NCBI GenBank assembly: GCA_944362705.1
Contig: CALVTO010000001.1
Location: forward strand, 359,366 to 423,365
Source: an uncultured Clostridia bacterium
GTDB lineage: Bacteria > Bacillota > Clostridia > Christensenellales > UBA1242
Reading direction: 5' to 3'
DNA length: 64,000 bases
The position numbers were made by a program, and so were the translations under genes. The notes under the pieces were generated by a model. It saw only the letters and a list, made by a program, of their open reading frames with translations. It had not been told where the DNA came from and did not search any database. Positions 2,467 through 38,742 of the stretch are shown here, piece by piece (position 1 is the first letter of the stretch; every line of letters begins with the position of its first letter).

Positions 2467-3133
2467 ACTTATACTTAAATTATTTGGTTTAACCGGGCAA
2501 AATATTCAAACCAAGGCATCAGCGTTACAAAACCTTCAACTTACGGTACAAGAACGTAACTACGATGCCACACTTATGGTGCATAACGCCACGCAGGAGC
2601 AACAGTCTGCACTTTGTGCTATGTTTGCGCCATACATTTACGCCACCGAAGATATTTCTATTTACGAACAAGTCGCGCGCCTTTGCGCCTTACGTAACCG
2701 TAAATTGTCCGTTACCGAACAAGGCTCAGGTGGCATTATTACAGCCAACCTTTCACAAACCAGCCCAGCACCAAGTTTTTTGCAAACATGTGTTACCATA
2801 TCTAACCCGTTACAGTTTGTAGATATGTTTCATATCGACCCGCGCGAACTTACGCAACAGGGCATGGTACAACGCAATATATTGCAACAAATGGTTTCGC
2901 ATATTGATACCACACAAAAAGTAGACTTGCACCTACTAACGCTTGCACAATACAAGCCAAGTCCGTTTACCGCTTTTACCAGCACCGATATTGGCACCAT
3001 TTATTTAGGGGTTATGGATAAAGAAAATGTTCAAATACATAAGTACCAAGCACCCAACACAAGCATTAAGGCAGATATCATGCATTTTACAGCAAAGTTA
3101 GCATGTTTTGCACTATATCAAATTTTAAAATAA
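2459..3133 (+). CDS. Divergent CinA/PncC-like (CinA C-terminal domain) protein
   Basis: Sits in the pgsA-cinA-recA syntenic slot. SVTEQGSGGIITANL aligns to the CinA_C motif TTAESCTGG, and GTIYLGV aligns to GTVWFAF. ATG at 2459 with a GAGAAGGAA RBS. Confidence 0.6.
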   Translation: MNKLILKLFGLTGQNIQTKASALQNLQLTVQERNYDATLMVHNATQEQQSALCAMFAPYIYATEDISIYEQVARLCALRNRKLSVTEQGSGGIITANLSQTSPAPSFLQTCVTISNPLQFVDMFHIDPRELTQQGMVQRNILQQMVSHIDTTQKVDLHLLTLAQYKPSPFTAFTSTDIGTIYLGVMDKENVQIHKYQAPNTSIKADIMHFTAKLACFALYQILK

Positions 3134-7493: not shown

Positions 7494-8327
7494 ATGCCAC
7501 AAATATTTGATTTACATAACGATTGCCTTACATCCACAAAAGGCAAACTTTCTTATGCGCGTTACATAAAATCGCTACAACAACAGCCCGTTACGCAAGT
7601 TGTGCAAGTTATTTTTACCACAGAATACACCGAGCCTTTACCACAAATTCAAAAGCTTTACCAAACATTTTGTCAACACGCCAACACGCAAACCAAACAT
7701 ATAGCCATAGAAGACTTTTGGTTTGCCACCAAACGTAATGTGCCCACCATTTTACAATACAACCCCTTATATATTGGTTTAACATGGAACGATACCAACC
7801 GTTTAGCAGGTGGAGCCTTTGGTCAGGGCGGGTTAACACCATGGGGCGAACAAGTGGTAAAACAAATTGAACAAACAAGTTTGGTCGATACCGCTCATTT
7901 AAACGAAAAAAGTTTTTACGCATTTGCAAACATTACACAAAAACCCATACTTTGTTCGCATACGGCACTTGCGTCTTTTTATAAACACCCACGTAACCTA
8001 ACCAATGCCCAAATACAAACCATTGTGCAAAGCAATGGTTTAGTGGGGTTGTGTTTTGTTAGTGAATTTATCAATGGAAAAAAACATTGTACGGTACAAG
8101 ATATTGCACAAGAAATTGATTATTTTGTTGAGCATTTTGGTATAGAGCATATTGCCTTAGGTACCGATTTTTACGGAACAAAAAAATTACCTGTTGGCAT
8201 AAAAACCTACGAAGATATTTCTCTTTTATATACCAAACTACAAAATAGGGGATACACAGAAAAACAAATTGAACAACTCTTTTTTCAAAACGCACAAACC
8301 TTTTTTGCTAATGTGTATAAGTCTTAA
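7494..8327 (+). CDS. Membrane (renal-type) dipeptidase, peptidase M19 family
   Basis: M19 landmarks: DLHND, VDTAHLNEKSF, CSHTAL..HPRNLTNAQIQ, GLCF and LGTDFYG. ATG at 7494 preferred over TTG at 7446, but the RBS is weak. Confidence 0.75.
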   Translation: MPQIFDLHNDCLTSTKGKLSYARYIKSLQQQPVTQVVQVIFTTEYTEPLPQIQKLYQTFCQHANTQTKHIAIEDFWFATKRNVPTILQYNPLYIGLTWNDTNRLAGGAFGQGGLTPWGEQVVKQIEQTSLVDTAHLNEKSFYAFANITQKPILCSHTALASFYKHPRNLTNAQIQTIVQSNGLVGLCFVSEFINGKKHCTVQDIAQEIDYFVEHFGIEHIALGTDFYGTKKLPVGIKTYEDISLLYTKLQNRGYTEKQIEQLFFQNAQTFFANVYKS

Positions 8328-13397: not shown

Positions 13398-13427
13398 TAT
13401 ATAAATATAATTTTAGGGGTGAACTAT

Positions 13428-15941
13428 ATGTCTGGAATTGATAGCGAACTAATCCGTGGACATATCGATACCATCATTTTAAAAACGTTAGATGGTAGCA
13501 GTAAATACGGCTACGAAATTTGTCACGATGTAGAAACCGTTAGCAACGGTGAATACGAATTAAAACAGCCAACACTATATAGTTGTTTAAAGCGCTTAGA
13601 AGATAAAGGGCTTATTTCTTCTTATTGGGAAGATAGCGATATTGGTGGCCGTAGGCATTATTATAAACTTACACAAGAAGGTAAAAAAGTATACAACGAA
13701 AACACAAAAAACTGGATACTTTCTCGTGATATTATCGATAGTTTAATTTTAGATAACACCACCCCATCCTATTCAGCCGAAGAACTTGTAGAAATAGATG
13801 CCGACCTTATTCGTGGTAATATCGATACCATTATTTTAAAAACCTTAGAAACAGGTGCAAAATATGGCTATGAAATTTGTCGAGATGTAGAAGAAAAAAG
13901 CAACAAAACCTACGAGTTAAAACAACCAACACTATATAGTTGCTTAAAGCGCTTAGAAGATAAAGAACTTATTTCTTCCTACTGGGAAGATAGCGATATT
14001 GGTGGCCGTAGGCACTACTATAAACTTACGCAAAAAGGCGTGGAAGCTTTGCAAGAAAATAAACTTGCATGGGAAGAATCTAAAGAGCTTATTAACCGCC
14101 TAATTTTTAACAGTGCTACATATACGCAACACGTTTCCCCGACTACTTCTACCACCACGCAAACTATGGCTAATGAACATGTAAACTTCATTGACTCCGC
14201 AATAACCGAAGTAAATGAACAGCAACCTGAAACCGTAACCGAAGAAACTACACAACAGGTGCTTGAAGAAGAAACAAATAACGGTTCTTTTGAAAACACT
14301 GAAACTGATAACGAAGTGGTTGAAGAACCGGTTGAAGAAGAATCTACTTACCCAACCATTTCACAAATAGAAGACGCTTCCACTGTAGACGATGCGTGGT
14401 TTGCCGATGAAACAACAGAAACAACAAATATCGATGCTGAAGAAGAAACTGTTGAAGCCGACGAAACATCGTCAACCGAACCATCTCAAATCAACGAATC
14501 GCAAGAAAACGAAGAAACTAGTGCTACCGAAGAAACAGAAGAAACCACTACCCCTTCTTTCTTTGCACAAAGCGAAGACGATACCGATTGTCAAGTTGAC
14601 ATACCGCAAACGTCATCTATTATTCGTGAAAAAACTCTAGAAAACACCTCAAACGCAACAGAAGAAGAAACAAACAATATTGGTATGGAAGAAGATGAAG
14701 AAACTGAAAACAACGAAACAAGTTTCGATGACTTTTTAGCGCAAAACGAATCTAACTACGCTCTGCAAGTTTCACAACAAAAACCAGCAACGCAACAAGA
14801 AGAAACCACGCAAGACGATTTGTTCGATACACTACACTTCTCTTCTATTACCGATGAAATAGAACCATTACAACCACAACAAACCCAATCTATGGCTTCT
14901 CAAAGTAACGAACCAACCATAATTTTGCCAGATATTATTGAAGAAACCTCCGATACAGATTTTGATATTCATCAATATATTTCGCAAAATAAAAGCTATG
15001 TAAACGCAACCACCGAAGAGCAAAATATCACGTTTTCTCCAAAACCAACGGTTTCTGCTACAGAGCCCGATGAGAACACAACCTATACTTTCTACAAACA
15101 AGAAGAACAACAAGAAAACGCTATCAAAGAACCTGTTGCCTCTGTAGATGAAGACGATACCGAAGACTATGAAGACGACCACAAATACGATGATGAAATC
15201 TTTTTAGATTATAAACCTAATAAAGAAAAAGAAACGCAAGAACAACCGAACAGCACAGAAGAAAGCGTAACAGAAGAAAAACCGTTATACACAGCAACCT
15301 ATACAGAAAAAGAATACCGCGATGCGCTTGATAAACTTTCTGCATATACAAAGAATAACGAACTTAACGATTCACATGAAGATTTACAAACCACTGAAAA
15401 AACAAGTTTAGAAGCATTGCAGAAAAAACTAGAACAAAAAGGCATTACTCTTTCTATTTATCAACGTGGTGTTAGCGTTCCAGAGTCAACAAAAAATTAT
15501 GTAGCAACCAATAAAATTAAAATGGTACGTTCGCTTATTACATTGTGCTTTATGTCGTTTCTGCTTGCACTTACCTACATATCTTTAAACAATTATGGTT
15601 ACGTTAATCAAGACCTTTACGCAACCAACACCTACTTTATTGTTGCTTTTGCGCTTATTTGCATACCACCTATTTTTGCTAGCATACGCTACGCTATTCA
15701 TCCAACAAAAAAACATATAGCTCGGTTTGCACCAAGAATTTCGCTATTATTTGCCCTTCTATTTACCGTGCAAATTTTAGTTATTATTTATTCTGTAAAC
15801 CTGCAGTTAGGTTTTACATCGTTTACACAAACCAATTATAACCATTTAAATTGGATTGTTCCTTGCGTGTTAACGCTATACTTATTTGTTGATTGCATCG
15901 TGTACATTATTTTATATAACTCTAAAAAGTTTCATAAATAG
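13428..15941 (+). CDS. Membrane-anchored protein with two tandem PadR-type wHTH domains and a long acidic low-complexity linker
   Basis: Two PadR-like units (LIRG.IDTIILKTL..YGYEI...ELKQPTLYSCLKRLEDK.LISSYWEDSDIGGRRHYYKLT). Then about 470 aa rich in E/T/Q/D/N, and about four hydrophobic helices at the C-terminus. ATG at 13428 follows AGGGGTG. Confidence 0.7.
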   Translation: MSGIDSELIRGHIDTIILKTLDGSSKYGYEICHDVETVSNGEYELKQPTLYSCLKRLEDKGLISSYWEDSDIGGRRHYYKLTQEGKKVYNENTKNWILSRDIIDSLILDNTTPSYSAEELVEIDADLIRGNIDTIILKTLETGAKYGYEICRDVEEKSNKTYELKQPTLYSCLKRLEDKELISSYWEDSDIGGRRHYYKLTQKGVEALQENKLAWEESKELINRLIFNSATYTQHVSPTTSTTTQTMANEHVNFIDSAITEVNEQQPETVTEETTQQVLEEETNNGSFENTETDNEVVEEPVEEESTYPTISQIEDASTVDDAWFADETTETTNIDAEEETVEADETSSTEPSQINESQENEETSATEETEETTTPSFFAQSEDDTDCQVDIPQTSSIIREKTLENTSNATEEETNNIGMEEDEETENNETSFDDFLAQNESNYALQVSQQKPATQQEETTQDDLFDTLHFSSITDEIEPLQPQQTQSMASQSNEPTIILPDIIEETSDTDFDIHQYISQNKSYVNATTEEQNITFSPKPTVSATEPDENTTYTFYKQEEQQENAIKEPVASVDEDDTEDYEDDHKYDDEIFLDYKPNKEKETQEQPNSTEESVTEEKPLYTATYTEKEYRDALDKLSAYTKNNELNDSHEDLQTTEKTSLEALQKKLEQKGITLSIYQRGVSVPESTKNYVATNKIKMVRSLITLCFMSFLLALTYISLNNYGYVNQDLYATNTYFIVAFALICIPPIFASIRYAIHPTKKHIARFAPRISLLFALLFTVQILVIIYSVNLQLGFTSFTQTNYNHLNWIVPCVLTLYLFVDCIVYIILYNSKKFHK
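13449..14033 (+). repeat. Internal direct duplication (two 228-nt units, 357-nt period) encoding the two PadR domains
   Basis: Units at 13449-13676 and 13806-14033. In the 3' halves roughly 9 of 10 nucleotides are identical by eye. Confidence 0.85.
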
Positions 15942-16053: not shown

Positions 16054-16422
16054 ATGAAATTTTTTAGATGTAAACATTGTGGCAATATTATTGCATACGT
16101 AAAAAATAGCGGGGTTAAAGTTGTATGTTGTGGTGAACCAATGGAAGAAATAACTGCAAATTCAACAGACGCTGCACAAGAGAAACACGTTCCTATGGTT
16201 AAAGTTGAAAGAAACCTTGTTACAGTTACTGTTTCAAGTGTCGAACACCCAATGACAAATGAACATTATATTGAATGGGTTGCTTTAGAAACAAAACTTG
16301 GTAACCAAAGAAAAAATCTACAACCTAATACAAAACCAGAAGTACAATTTTCAATGTTAAATGGAGATGAAATTAAAACTGTGTATGCGTATTGCAATTT
16401 GCATGGTCTTTGGAAAAGTTGA
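16054..16422 (+). CDS. dfx: Desulfoferrodoxin-type superoxide reductase
   Basis: 122 aa with an N-terminal CxxC..CC desulforedoxin-like centre (CKHCGN..VCCGEPM) and EKHVP..HPM..EHYIEW..C..HGLW. Confidence 0.85.
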   Translation: MKFFRCKHCGNIIAYVKNSGVKVVCCGEPMEEITANSTDAAQEKHVPMVKVERNLVTVTVSSVEHPMTNEHYIEWVALETKLGNQRKNLQPNTKPEVQFSMLNGDEIKTVYAYCNLHGLWKS

Positions 16423-16766: not shown

Positions 16767-17219
16767 TTACACGCTCACTTTAGCTTTTGCAATTGCCGAA
16801 GTTGCTAACTTATCACACCTGTTATTGTATTCGTTGTCAGCGTGTCCTTTTACTTTTACCCAAGTTATTTTATGAATTTGTGTAAAATACAAAACACGTT
16901 GCCATAAATCGACATTTTTCACTGCTTGTTTTGAAGCGTTTTTCCAATCATTCATTTCCCAAGCAACCACCCAGTTTTGTAAAAAAGCATTTACCACATA
17001 AGCGGAATCGCTATACAGTGTAACATCACACGGCATTTTTAATTGTTCTAGCGCTTTAATTACTGCCATAAGCTCCATACGGTTGTTGGTTGTATCTTTT
17101 TCAAAACCACTACCCTCTTTTTTATGTGCACCATATAACAAAACAAAACCCCAACCTCCTATACCAGGGTTTCCAGAGCATGCTCCATCTGTATAAACAT
17201 CTACATGTATATTTTTCAT
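16767..17219 (-). CDS. rnhA: Ribonuclease HI
   Basis: YTDGACSGNPG.GGWG, NNRMEL, YSDS and VKGHADNEYNNRCDKLA motifs. Met-8 (17219) aligns best with the E. coli RNase HI N-terminus. Confidence 0.85.
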   Translation of the reverse strand: MKNIHVDVYTDGACSGNPGIGGWGFVLLYGAHKKEGSGFEKDTTNNRMELMAVIKALEQLKMPCDVTLYSDSAYVVNAFLQNWVVAWEMNDWKNASKQAVKNVDLWQRVLYFTQIHKITWVKVKGHADNEYNNRCDKLATSAIAKAKVSV

Positions 17220-17318
17220 GGTTTTATTATAAAATATCATATGTTTTTACGCAAATGTTTTCCTTTGAAATCATTGACTTTTTTTGTCAGGTATGATACC
17301 ATAATTTTGCTCACATTT

Positions 17319-17392
17319 AGGGGTGTAGTTCATCGGTAGAATAAGAGTCTCCAAAACTCCTGAGGAGGGTTCGATTCCTTCCACCCCTGCCA
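17319..17392 (+). tRNA. tRNA-Trp (anticodon CCA)
   Basis: Hand-folded cloverleaf: acceptor AGGGGTG/CACCCCT, anticodon loop CTCCAAA, T-loop TTCGATT, and an encoded CCA. Confidence 0.85.
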
Positions 17393-17504
17393 TAAAAACA
17401 ACTAACCGCTTACATAGCGGTTTTTATTATACTTTCCGTTTGGAATCTCACCCTACGGGTTCGCCCCTGTCGGGGCCAGACCGCAAACACGCGAAACCGC
17501 GCGT
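17377..17504 (+). repeat. Direct repeat copy 1 (starts with the last 16 nt of tRNA-Trp)
   Basis: CCTTCCACCCCTGCCATAAAAACAA..., then a terminator and a GC-rich element. Near-identical to 17562-17689. Confidence 0.9.
17404..17425 (+). terminator. Terminator after tRNA-Trp
   Basis: AACCGCT / AGCGGTT stem followed by T5. Confidence 0.7.
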
Positions 17505-17561
17505 ATTGCTCCCGGCTCACGCTAAAAACTTGCCACAGGCAACTTTTCTTAACGCGTCGCC

Positions 17562-17689
17562 CCTTCCACCCCTGCCATAAAAACAATCAACCGCTTACAC
17601 AGCGGTTTTTTTTATGCTTTTTGTTTGAAATCTCACCCTACGGGTTCGCCCCTGTCGGGGCCAGACCGCAAACACGCGAAACCGCGCGT
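17562..17689 (+). repeat. Direct repeat copy 2 (orphan tRNA-Trp 3' end + terminator + GC-rich element)
   Basis: Offset is 185 nt from copy 1. There is no 5' tRNA half upstream, since no AGGGGTG acceptor strand is present. Confidence 0.9.
17589..17613 (+). terminator. Duplicated terminator hairpin
   Basis: AACCGCT / AGCGGTT stem followed by T8. Confidence 0.6.
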
Positions 17690-17732
17690 TCTGTCTTAAC
17701 CACAAAAATAAAATTCTTTACTATAAATTTTC

Positions 17733-17770
17733 AAACATTTGTTTACATTTTTACAATTATTTGGTACAAT
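17733..17770 (+). promoter_or_regulatory. lexA promoter with overlapping SOS-box-like palindrome
   Basis: AAAC-ATTT-GTTT (17733-17744) overlaps the -35 TTTACA. A 17-nt spacer precedes the -10 TACAAT (17765-17770). Confidence 0.55.
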
Positions 17771-17788
17771 AGCATTAAGGAGTGCATT

Positions 17789-18391
17789 ATGAGTTTAAAG
17801 TGCGAAAAGAAAACCGAACAACTACTTGAATTTATTACACATTTTATTCAAAAAAACAACTACCCACCATCTGTTCGCGAAATGCAAAAAGGCATTGGTG
17901 TAGCCTCAACAGCAACTATCAATTATTATTTAGAAAAATTACAAAAGCTAAATTTAATAAAAAAATCAGCCATGAAAAACCGTACCATCGAACTTGTGCG
18001 CACGGAAGAACAACCAGAATCTGTTTCTGTTCCATTTGTTGGTCAAGTTGCTGCAGGTGTTCCTATTTTAGCTGAAGAACACATTGAAGAATATATACCG
18101 CTTCCTAAAAACATGTTTCATAAAGATGAAATGTTTTTACTTAACGTTGTTGGCGAAAGTATGATAAACGCAGGCATTTTACCTAACGACAAAGTTATTG
18201 TACAAAAAACATCATCCGCAAAAAATGGAGATATTGTGGTTGCACTTATAGATCAAAGCGCCACCGTGAAACGCTTTTTTAAAGAAAAAGATCATATTCG
18301 CTTGCAACCCGAAAACGATTTTATGGAACCTATCCTTGTGAAAAATGTTGACATTTTAGGCATTGTTATTGGTTTATTAAGACAATATTAA
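17789..18391 (+). CDS. lexA: LexA repressor
   Basis: N-terminal wHTH (PPSVREMQKGIGVAS), cleavage region VAAG, and the Ser/Lys dyad (GESM ... TVKRF). ATG at 17789 follows AAGGAG. The track's N-terminal extension runs through the repeat. Confidence 0.92.
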   Translation: MSLKCEKKTEQLLEFITHFIQKNNYPPSVREMQKGIGVASTATINYYLEKLQKLNLIKKSAMKNRTIELVRTEEQPESVSVPFVGQVAAGVPILAEEHIEEYIPLPKNMFHKDEMFLLNVVGESMINAGILPNDKVIVQKTSSAKNGDIVVALIDQSATVKRFFKEKDHIRLQPENDFMEPILVKNVDILGIVIGLLRQY

Positions 18392-33533: not shown

Positions 33534-34553
33534 TCACTTTGCAACCGAACTATTTTCTATGACAACTAAATGCGCAATTCCAGGAATACTATCACCTTGT
33601 TGATTTGTAACCGTACTCATTAAAGCACCCGTAGCCATAAAAATAATTTTTTTAAATTGCTTATTACACAATTTTTTATAAACATACGAACAAAAAACGC
33701 TTGCCGAACACCCAGTACCGCTTCCGCCTTGAAAAGTCTTTTGCGAGGCAGAATATATCATATGTCCACAGTCCTCATAATTTTCTTCTAGAATATACCC
33801 TTTTTCTCGCATTAAATCTTTTAAAATATCCGAACCAAGTTTTCCTAAGTCACCCGACAAAATTAAATCATAGTCTTTAGGTTCTGTCTTTGTATCCTGA
33901 AAAAAGGTATACAACGTATCCATCGCTGCAGGCGCCATAGCCGCACCCATATTTGCGATATCTTTTATACCGTAATCGGTAACTTTTCCAAACGTAACCA
34001 TGCGCACACACGGCCCTTTGCCCTTGCAAGAGAGAATGCACGAGCCCATGCCGGTTACCGTCCATTGCGAATATGTTTGCCGCTGGTTCCCTAGTTCTAA
34101 TGGCGTACGGAACTGACGTTCTGCTGTACTAAAATGACTACCCGTAGCGCAAGTAATAATTTCTCCAACACCCGCATCTAGCAAACATGCAGCAATTGCC
34201 AAACTTTCACTCATGGTAGAACAAGCCCCATATACACCTAAAAACGGAACGTTTAAACTACGCGCAGAATAATTCATGGTAACCAATTGGTTTAATAAAT
34301 CTCCACCAATCAATAAATCAATATCTTGTTCCGTAATATGTGCCTTTTCTAACACCAAATCTATACAGCTTTCCATCATTTTTCTTTCTGCTTTTTCAAA
34401 CGTTTTTTCGCCCATCATATCGTCTTCTGTACAATGTTCAAAATAAGCTTTTAACGGACCATTTTTTTCTTTTTCGCCTACAATGGTAGCGGTAGAAATA
34501 ATATGAATAGGTTTTTCTAACGCATATGTTTGTTTCCCTAGTCTTTTCGCCAT
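33534..34553 (-). CDS. spoVAD: Stage V sporulation protein AD
   Basis: Thiolase-like fold. MAKRLGKQTYALEKP aligns with B. subtilis MKLTGKQTW. GGAGAA RBS precedes the ATG at 34553. Confidence 0.88.
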   Translation of the reverse strand: MAKRLGKQTYALEKPIHIISTATIVGEKEKNGPLKAYFEHCTEDDMMGEKTFEKAERKMMESCIDLVLEKAHITEQDIDLLIGGDLLNQLVTMNYSARSLNVPFLGVYGACSTMSESLAIAACLLDAGVGEIITCATGSHFSTAERQFRTPLELGNQRQTYSQWTVTGMGSCILSCKGKGPCVRMVTFGKVTDYGIKDIANMGAAMAPAAMDTLYTFFQDTKTEPKDYDLILSGDLGKLGSDILKDLMREKGYILEENYEDCGHMIYSASQKTFQGGSGTGCSASVFCSYVYKKLCNKQFKKIIFMATGALMSTVTNQQGDSIPGIAHLVVIENSSVAK

Positions 34554-38201: not shown

Positions 38202-38278
38202 CGGGGTGTAGCGCAGTTTGGTAGCGCACGTGGTTTGGGTCCATGGGGCCGGGAGTTCGAGTCTCTCCACCCCGACCA
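38202..38278 (+). tRNA. tRNA-Pro (TGG)
   Basis: Cloverleaf folded by hand. Anticodon loop TTTGGGT, with an encoded CCA. Confidence 0.9.
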
Positions 38279-38289
38279 CACAATTTTAT

Positions 38290-38366
38290 GGGCCTTTAGC
38301 TCAGTTGGTTAGAGCAACCGGCTCATAACCGGTCGGTCCGCGGTTCAAGTCCGTGAAGGCCCACCA
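38290..38366 (+). tRNA. tRNA with CAT anticodon (elongator Met or, more likely, lysidine-type Ile2)
   Basis: Anticodon loop CTCATAA. It lacks the initiator features (no GGG/CCC anticodon stem). It resembles E. coli ileX from memory. Confidence 0.8.
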
Positions 38367-38388
38367 ATAAAAAAAGATATTATATTTT

Positions 38389-38465
38389 GGCTCGGTAGCT
38401 CAGCTGGTTAGAGCGCTAGCCTGTCACGCTAGAGGTCGAGGGTTCGAGCCCCTTCCGAGTCGCCA
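38389..38465 (+). tRNA. tRNA-Asp (GTC)
   Basis: Anticodon loop CTGTCAC, T-loop TTCGAGC and an encoded CCA. Confidence 0.9.
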
Positions 38466-38489
38466 ATAATATCTTTTTTTATAACATTT

Positions 38490-38565
38490 GCCTTGGTAGC
38501 TCAGTCGGTAGAGCAAGGGACTGAAAATCCCTGTGTCGGTGGTTCGATTCCGCCCCAAGGCACCA
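38490..38565 (+). tRNA. tRNA-Phe (GAA)
   Basis: Anticodon loop CTGAAAA with an encoded CCA. Confidence 0.9.
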
Positions 38566-38574
38566 CCTAAATAT

Positions 38575-38649
38575 GCTGGTGTGGCTCAATGGCAGAGCAG
38601 CTGACTTGTAATCAGCAGGTTGTTGGTTCGACTCCGACCACCAGCTCCA
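38575..38649 (+). tRNA. tRNA-Thr (TGT)
   Basis: Anticodon loop CTTGTAA with an encoded CCA. Confidence 0.9.
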
Positions 38650-38657
38650 TATTTTAC

Positions 38658-38742
38658 GGAAGAGTTCCAGAGCGGTCAAATGGAACGGACTGTAAATCCG
38701 TCGTCTCCGACTTCGGTGGTTCGAATCCACCCTCTTCCACCA
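38658..38742 (+). tRNA. tRNA-Tyr (GTA)
   Basis: Anticodon loop CTGTAAA, a long variable arm and an encoded CCA. Confidence 0.9.

Follow-up and report, generated by a model that had tools for sequence, protein, structure and literature searches.

The tRNA-Trp locus and its repeat

The 64,000-nt (64-kb) stretch of DNA analysed here, referred to as the window, comes from an uncultured gut Clostridia bacterium and carries a tRNA-Trp gene between a divergent RNase H gene and lexA. The 3' end of this tRNA gene is repeated downstream as part of a head-to-tail array of units; assemblies of the species differ in the number of units, and the unit variants are mosaic. The locus is probably a tRNA-linked repeat (TLR) array of the RtT type on tRNA-Trp. 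Its closest known analogue is the E. coli TLR, or RtT RNA, which an earlier prediction made for this locus (the original prediction) did not name. From tRNA end to tRNA end, a unit consists of a terminator-like hairpin (T1), a GC-rich module, a conserved hairpin between A and T runs, a 13-nt spacer, and a 16-nt direct copy of the tRNA end. This layout is the same as that of the E. coli RtT units. The module opens with the tRNA's own 3' region copied in inverted orientation, a feature that the original prediction missed. The parts of the locus, in window coordinates, are as follows.

16767-17240, minus strand: RNase H gene, divergent from tRNA-Trp (Pfam RNase_H)
17319-17392, plus strand: tRNA-Trp (anticodon CCA) with CCA encoded, the anchor of the array (ARAGORN; Rfam tRNA, 56.4 bits)
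17377-17561, plus strand: unit 1, 185 nt, comprising core, spacer, terminator T1, GC-rich module, and Q (repeat period; dissection across strains)
17377-17392, plus strand: core copy 1, CCTTCCACCCCTGCCA, within the tRNA, spanning the T-stem 3' strand, acceptor 3' strand, discriminator, and CCA
17404-17422, plus strand: terminator-like hairpin T1 copy 1, AACCGCT-TACAT-AGCGGTT followed by a T run (terminator scan; scores on both strands)
17442-17453, plus strand: GGAATCTCACCC, a decayed inverted copy of the tRNA T-arm GGGTTCGATTCC (17367-17378), intact in unit types B and C
17447-17503, plus strand: GC-rich module copy 1 (57-mer), with hairpin 1 at 17463-17476 and hairpin 2 at 17489-17504
17505-17561, plus strand: Q, a 57-nt segment found only between units, with hairpin TTGCC-ACA-GGCAA at 17530-17542 between an A run and a T run
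17562-17689, plus strand: partial unit 2, 128 nt, without Q; core copy 2 at 17562-17577, T1 copy 2 at 17589-17607, module copy 2 at 17632-17688
17742-17770, plus strand: lexA promoter-like site directly 3' of the array (promoter scan, 10/12 with TG)
17789-18391, plus strand: lexA (Pfam LexA_DNA_bind and Peptidase_S24 on an identical protein)

The original prediction held that the last 16 nt of tRNA-Trp recur 185 nt downstream within a 128-nt direct repeat that includes the terminator and a GC-rich element of about 57 nt, and each of these statements is borne out. The 16-mer CCTTCCACCCCTGCCA occurs in the window only at 17377 and 17562. A repeat search of the window returns two 128-nt copies (17377-17504 and 17562-17689) that are 94% identical, differ at 8 of 128 positions, and start 185 nt apart. 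Between the copies lie 57 nt (17505-17561), and 169 nt separate the two cores; the array in the window amounts to 1.69 copies of a 185-nt tandem unit. The AACCGCT/AGCGGTT terminator is duplicated with the rest (17404-17422 and 17589-17607). The 57-nt GC-rich element has exactly two occurrences without mismatches (17447-17503 and 17632-17688) and no match in any shuffle. GC content peaks at 0.52 at the repeat against 0.35 for the window, and comparable values are reached only by tRNA genes, bar two short stretches (7799-7848 and 33998-34060). None of the other seven tRNAs of the window has a duplicated 3' end. Q ends in ..TTAACGCGTCGCC directly 5' of the next core. The only open reading frame (ORF) of at least 50 aa between the cores encodes 58 aa from a TTG start on the opposite strand (17410-17586), and a coding role for it is disfavoured because the copies differ by unit-length indels.

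Copy number among assemblies

Related loci were defined as contigs encoding an identical LexA, LexA cluster members at least 90% identical, or an identical RNase H. The loci retrieved come from many independent metagenome assemblies of the same species, with flanking DNA about 97-98% identical. In these assemblies, the gap between RNase H and lexA measures 366, 545-548, 726, or 917 nt, corresponding to 1, 2, 3, or 4 units, and each array sits on a complete tRNA. One unit is assembled in L002 and L100, two in the window, L001, L003, L098, and L107, three in L099, and four in L004. This count is core-first and includes the terminal partial unit, which always lacks Q; unit length is 183-187 nt across assemblies. 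The tandem duplication offered as one reading in the original prediction is therefore supported and extended by the comparison of related strains that it had proposed: conspecific assemblies carry arrays of one, two, three, or four units. Nor is the repeat fixed at two copies and absent elsewhere, the outcome that the original prediction had named as its own refutation.

Units differ from one another by single-nucleotide polymorphisms (SNPs) and small indels in a mosaic pattern, and all four combinations of the hairpin-1 allele with the T1-loop variant are seen. These mosaic variants indicate exchange between units, and copy-number change via unequal recombination between them is well supported. 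Copy number would change by unequal homologous recombination or slippage between units that are about 94% identical.

It is hardly credible that the duplication arose as an artefact of assembly. Short-read assemblies are prone to error where a repeat exceeds the k-mer, and contig breaks and N gaps do fall in the array: many contigs start or stop within it (L005-L010 and L101-L106), and two scaffolds have N gaps there. Nevertheless, the two window copies are not identical, independent assemblies from many samples and studies contain the same or similar multi-unit arrays with unit-specific SNPs, and a second, distant species, species Z, has the same architecture in seven assemblies.

Two contigs show reciprocal-looking joins across an identical 74-nt tRNA-Trp. 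L098 (1-2600) runs from LactB through the tRNA and an array of the window's unit type, type A, to lexA, and L111 (1-1490) runs from RNase H through the tRNA and a type B unit to mscL. These joins may reflect recombination between two tRNA-Trp loci of the species or chimeric assemblies.

Diverged unit types and distribution

Two diverged unit types lie behind tRNA-Trp in other contexts. In type B (L111), the unit behind tRNA-Trp is 143 nt long and lies upstream of mscL; 27-nt direct repeats flank its 116-nt insert. Type C is found in species Z (L118-L124, seven assemblies), where the gap between LactB and mscL is 365, 525, or 683 nt, corresponding to 0.x, 1.x, or 2.x units of 158 nt behind tRNA-Trp. 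Genes of species Z are only 67-73% identical in DNA to those of the window species. Even with this divergence, types A and C share 94% identity in Q, and types B and C share 90% in the left half of the module, while the spacers cannot be aligned; relative to each other, the unit types are mosaic. The same junction of Q and core is seen at three loci and in two species whose spacers differ. The orientation of tRNA-Trp and its array relative to mscL is opposite in species Z (L118-L124, about 2480-3000) and L111, and BLAST strands suggest an apparent in-place inversion between LactB and mscL.

In all DNA examined, the module occurs solely at tRNA-Trp loci. Neither the 64-kb window nor the fetched loci (1.17 Mb in total) contain a copy elsewhere, and all nhmmer matches of the unit profile are linked to tRNA-Trp. 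An exact and degenerate pattern scan of GTDB genomes gives 0 matches, in a collection from which the source species seems to be absent (best LexA 55% identical). A pattern scan of JGI metagenomes returns one match only, attributable to chance. In IMG/VR, five module or junction patterns have 0 matches each; the 16-nt core pattern is matched, in no case with the module. Searches of phages and plasmids by blastn return negative or chance matches and no source of the module.

This distribution bears on the proposal that the module is a dispersed palindromic element beside the tRNA, akin to repetitive extragenic palindromic (REP) sequences, bacterial interspersed mosaic elements (BIMEs), or miniature inverted-repeat transposable elements (MITEs). 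GC-rich hairpins in an AT-rich intergenic region fit such an element, as do the 8-12-nt inverted repeats (AGGGGTGG..CCACCCCT) that bound type C units. Dispersed copies, however, are what defines such elements, and none is found outside tRNA-Trp flanks in the window and fetched loci; there is no target-site duplication, and the inverted ends are the tRNA's own sequence. A REP-like origin, one of the options in the original prediction, is thus very improbable. The accompanying suggestion of a small element specific to this tRNA is supported in part, since diverged relatives stand behind tRNA-Trp in other contexts and in another species.

Sites without the module are found in relatives. In a sister species (LexA 88% identical), T1 is followed directly by the lexA promoter with no module between T1 and lexA; units further upstream could still be present because the contig begins at T1. 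In more distant relatives, the order is RNase H, tRNA-Trp, small ORF, lexA, and no repeats are present. At the LactB-linked tRNA-Trp loci of closer relatives, only a terminator is present and no module. The array would have been acquired or built at the lexA locus after divergence from the more distant relatives. Two further loci were considered and set aside: an integrase beside lexA in a 60% relative (L095) is uninformative, with no tRNA or core there, and an mscL homologue at 74% (L126-L133) lies in a different context without units.

Several features of the neighbourhood were recorded. Three loci of more distant relatives (L013:2050-2400, L093:516-773, and L095:2726-2959) have a small Cys/His-rich ORF on the opposite strand, located between lexA and tRNA-Trp or the corresponding position; it was called at 77-85 aa in L093 and L095, was read by eye in L013, and is lacking in the window species and its sister. 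The palindrome AAACATTTGTTT at 17734-17745 overlaps the lexA promoter-like site and is kept in the sister species (L092). It is similar to the LexA box of Firmicutes (GAAC-N4-GTTC), and lexA is for this reason probably autoregulated. A desulfoferrodoxin gene (122 aa, 16054-16422), flanked by a PadR-marked ORF and RNase H, occurs in the window, L001, L099, and L100 but not at this position in L002, L003, L004, and L107. The PadR-marked ORF (840 aa, 13419-15941) contains an internal duplication identified by BLAST, two segments of about 247 nt (13436-13682 and 13793-14038) that are about 82% identical and 357 nt apart. Six clustered tRNA genes (Pro, Met, Asp, Phe, Thr, and Tyr) at 38202-38742 all lack a duplicated 3' end. 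The end of the tRNA-Asp, GAGTCGCCA, resembles the last bases of Q (GCGTCGCC), probably by chance.

Conservation and predicted structure of the unit

Conservation is far stronger in Q and the core than in the other parts of the unit and in the flanking genes. Among internal units, per-site diversity (pi) is 0.138 in the spacer, 0.101 in the left half of the module, 0.068 in the module middle, 0.029 in the core, and 0.013 in Q; Q is about 8-10 times less diverse than the remainder of the unit.

The two GC hairpins that the original prediction folded by eye both appear in the RNAfold minimum-free-energy structure, yet they fare differently among strains. A common allele, GGGCTGTTGCTGTCGGGG, abolishes hairpin 1 (GCCCC-TGTC-GGGGC), and hairpin 2 (ACGCG/CGCGT) has an invariant stem and a variable loop. 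The Q hairpin is 100% paired and has 2 compensatory pairs, support that comes through one compensatory event. As a structured RNA recognizable by covariation, the unit was rejected, with only the Q hairpin supported and hairpin 1 not conserved. A pseudo-tRNA was likewise rejected: neither ARAGORN nor a tRNA covariance model detects a further tRNA on one strand or the other, and Q plus core (73 nt) is not tRNA-like. Among known RNA families, Rfam recovers only the tRNA on both strands, other matches being at chance level.

A simple tandem duplication confined to the 3' flank of the tRNA, that is, a variable number tandem repeat (VNTR) with no mobile history or function and with only a coincidental likeness to RtT and TLR units, would account for the head-to-tail order, the partial last unit, and the variable copy number, and the weak covariation for RNA structure suits it as well. 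Duplication by illegitimate recombination, however, joins the breakpoints directly, and here the conserved 57-nt Q stands at every junction. The recurrence of one Q-core junction at three loci in two species behind different spacers, the low diversity of Q, and the recurrence of an inverted cognate tRNA-end copy in E. coli all speak against this explanation, which we regard as improbable.

Inverted tRNA ends and likeness to RtT units

Tandem repeats linked to tRNA genes have been known in E. coli since 1978 (PMC8144298). The 178-bp repeats of tyrT/tyrV were described by Egan & Landy (1978) and Rudd (1999), as cited in PMC8144298, and rtT RNA is encoded by one tyrT repeat unit (PMC3318445). In E. 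coli, TLRs comprise 22 sequences at ten loci, one to five per locus, and their last 18-19 bp match the 3' end of the upstream tRNA or rRNA (PMC8144298). Most have no known function, and the paper that defines them does not account for how they arose (PMC8144298). Three TLR-derived small RNAs (sRNAs), rrA, rrB, and rrF, arise by read-through between the dual terminators of E. coli rRNA operons (PMC8144298).

The E. coli tyrT/tyrV region was analysed alongside the Clostridial loci. Its repeat period is 178 nt, the tRNA-Tyr 3' end (17 nt) is present six times, and the Rfam RtT model (RF00391) matches each E. coli unit at 133-137 bits, which served as a positive control. In this model, a 5' segment, GGGGAAGG.., pairs with the 3' direct tRNA-end copy to close the structure. 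That segment is an inverted copy of the T-arm/acceptor region of tRNA-Tyr (19/22, 0/3000 shuffles).

An inverted copy of the cognate tRNA-Trp end is present in the Clostridial units. In type C it reads AGGGGTGG--GGAATCGAACCC and matches at 20/22 positions (0/3000 shuffles), and in type B it matches at 14/15 (0/3000 shuffles). The type A copy of the window, GGAATCTCACCC, matches at 11/13 and is marginal when taken alone (p about 0.06). Cross-tRNA controls for the inverted copy are negative. In type C, closure is predicted to form a 10-bp acceptor-like stem leaving GCCA-3'. In addition, the 14-nt hairpin TTGCCACAGGCAAC in Q is identical to the one at the equivalent place in the E. coli tyrT-tyrV unit (0-1/2000 shuffles).

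The features by which TLRs are recognized are present here. Units of types A, B, and C lie adjacent to and co-oriented downstream of a stable-RNA gene, and every complete unit has a 16-bp tRNA-end copy (CCTTCCACCCCTGCCA), slightly shorter than in E. coli. Complete units ending in a core copy number 0-3 at the lexA locus and 0-2 in species Z, in keeping with the one to five per locus of TLRs.

Relation to integrative elements

The original prediction recognized in the duplicated tRNA end a possible scar of integrase-mediated insertion. Developed in full, this explanation holds that the array is a relic or gene-less miniature of an integrative element. A tyrosine integrase acting at the T-stem/acceptor junction of tRNA-Trp would have duplicated the last 16 nt as attL/attR, the interior would have been lost, and the arms (module left half and Q) would have been kept; units may be moved or amplified in trans. 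We consider this a minority possibility. It draws on work on Islander, in which crossover subsites in tRNA genes (tDNA) include the T/acceptor junction, a displaced 3' fragment marks insertion, and tandem island arrays occur (PMC4383910).

The size and boundary of the 16-nt fragment are those of a displaced 3' tDNA fragment. The fragment starts at the T-stem 3' strand and fits both the junction subsite and the displaced 3' fragment (PMC4383910), and an intact tDNA is followed by a co-oriented fragment of fitting length. A prophage in IMG/VR from a related low-GC host ends in ..ATGTTT|CCTTCCACCCCTGCCA|host flank, where the flank is the sequence found 3' of an intact, near-identical tRNA-Trp. 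The identity of its attR starts 2 nt upstream of the array's 16-nt boundary, giving an 18-nt block, and three direct arm-type repeats, ATTTGTACCCAT, lie upstream of this attR, 130-190 nt away. The prophage (L152:13500-13722 / L169:1-60 / L182:12754-12827) comes from a host of 24-29% GC and has an amidase-type lysin ORF about 2 kb from attR. Further points in favour are the simple 116-nt insert of L111 within its 27-nt direct repeat, the patchy presence of the module (none between T1 and lexA in the sister species, and empty LactB-linked tRNA-Trp loci), a GC content foreign to the genome, and the conservation of Q and core across species with 67-73% identical genes, with unit types that are mosaic.

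Against this, Pfam marks on an identical contig show no integrase within 3 kb on either side, as the original prediction had noted for the adjacent DNA, and the 169 nt between the cores hold no tyrosine integrase such as Islander expects between tDNA and fragment. No parental element is found in IMG/VR, in phage and plasmid BLAST searches, or in the GTDB and JGI scans, and the prophage arms are not homologous to the module. The repeated sequence continues for 112 nt after CCA and takes in the locus-specific terminator, which a simple attP x attB event does not predict. Moreover, the last core is followed by another module copy and not by pristine host flank, and circles of 143-185 bp are very small for excision. 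Compared with the attL/attR of prophages and islands integrated in tDNA, the locus is alike in having an intact tRNA gene followed by a co-oriented 3' fragment, the tRNA end being used as core by a prophage of a related host; it differs in being an array without integrase or cargo whose repeat runs far beyond the tRNA and whose parental element was not found.

Interpretation

The interpretation as an RtT-type TLR array rests on the copy-variable array with its mosaic units, the restriction to tRNA-Trp loci, the diverged relatives, the conservation of Q and core, the shared unit layout, and the inverted cognate tRNA end, and several observations weigh against it. RF00391 has no match at E<=10 on window 17100-17900 or on type C L119 2300-3000, so membership of the RtT family by sequence and structure fails, and the resemblance is architectural and not demonstrated homology. 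The long closing stem is confined to type C, and types A and B keep 4-5 invariant pairs; over the types taken together, a 4-5-bp invariant closing stem is present in 90% of cells and lacks covariation. Beyond the Q hairpin, RNAalifold and explicit pair counting detect little conserved structure. The 14-mer shared with E. coli may be a coincidence because the hairpin is variable in the Rfam consensus. Copy numbers derive from short-read metagenome assemblies in which one-unit contigs could be collapsed arrays; multi-unit arrays are more trustworthy because of their unit-specific differences. Unequal recombination alone does not account for the origin of Q. Finally, a good terminator stands 5' of the module in types A and C, and a promoter scan finds no promoter inside the unit.

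The last two points concern expression. A tentative proposal, modelled on RtT and RrA/B/F of E. coli, is that read-through from the tRNA promoter would yield a transcript of the unit, which would then be cut at the tRNA-like end; with a terminator ahead of the module and no promoter found in the unit, transcription is unproven. The first unit may have arisen by an att-type duplication due to a tRNA-targeting integrase or by template switching at the T1 palindrome, the latter being one way in which the inverted tRNA-end copy could be made.

That this layout reappears with another tRNA in uncultured gut Clostridia suggests that such arrays are more than an enterobacterial curiosity. Shared between the two settings are a direct tRNA-end copy, an inverted cognate tRNA-end copy, an internal hairpin, and a small number of tandem units. 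A bolder proposal, which we put forward as speculation and judge unlikely, is that RtT and TLR units form a phylum-spanning class of small modules, each composed of two copies of its tRNA's 3' end, one inverted and one direct. They would arise and spread between tRNA loci by one common site-specific process, for instance through a trans-acting recombinase specific for tRNA ends or through strand switching on a template at the tRNA terminator, and be kept for tRNA-ended small RNAs with copy-number-dependent dosage; the Clostridial tRNA-Trp and E. coli tRNA-Tyr units would then reflect one mechanism. The Clostridial arrays offer handles beyond those available in E. coli: an apparent one-to-four copy variation among strains, module-free sites in relatives, three diverged unit types, and strong conservation of Q and core across distant species. 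Such arrays also have practical consequences, as they break short-read assemblies beside tRNA genes and can mimic attL/attR scars in genomic-island finders.

Comparison with known systems

The rrA, rrB, and rrF loci share with the window the succession of a stable-RNA gene, a terminator, a short module, a second terminator, and a copy of the 3' end of the upstream RNA, 18 bp long in E. coli. The corresponding order in the window is tRNA, T1, module, Q hairpin, core, and T1. Expression, processing, and binding to Hfq and CsrA are demonstrated for the E. coli sRNAs; the two systems have no sequence similarity.

Type B recalls tRNA 3' external transcribed spacer RNAs such as 3'ETS-leuZ (mentioned in PMC8144298) in that L111 has no terminator between tRNA and module. 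The type B module would there form a 3' trailer, with the Q hairpin as its end. Types A and C differ from 3'ETS-leuZ in carrying a terminator directly after the tRNA.

The nearest counterpart is the tyrT TLR/RtT array of E. coli. The two belong to different phyla and to different tRNAs, Trp in the uncultured gut Clostridia and Tyr in E. coli. Clostridial units have one or two intrinsic-terminator-like hairpins and no Tpr-like ORF, and their copy number is polymorphic among conspecific assemblies. In both systems, tandem co-oriented units lie directly 3' of a tRNA gene, with few units per locus, the last of them partial or decayed. Periods are of similar length (178 nt in E. coli against 185, 158, and 143 nt in the Clostridial types), and the tRNA-end copy starts at about the T-stem 3' strand in each, with 17-19 nt there and 16 nt here. 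Both also place an inverted T-arm/acceptor copy near the 5' side of the unit and an internal GC hairpin at the equivalent position.

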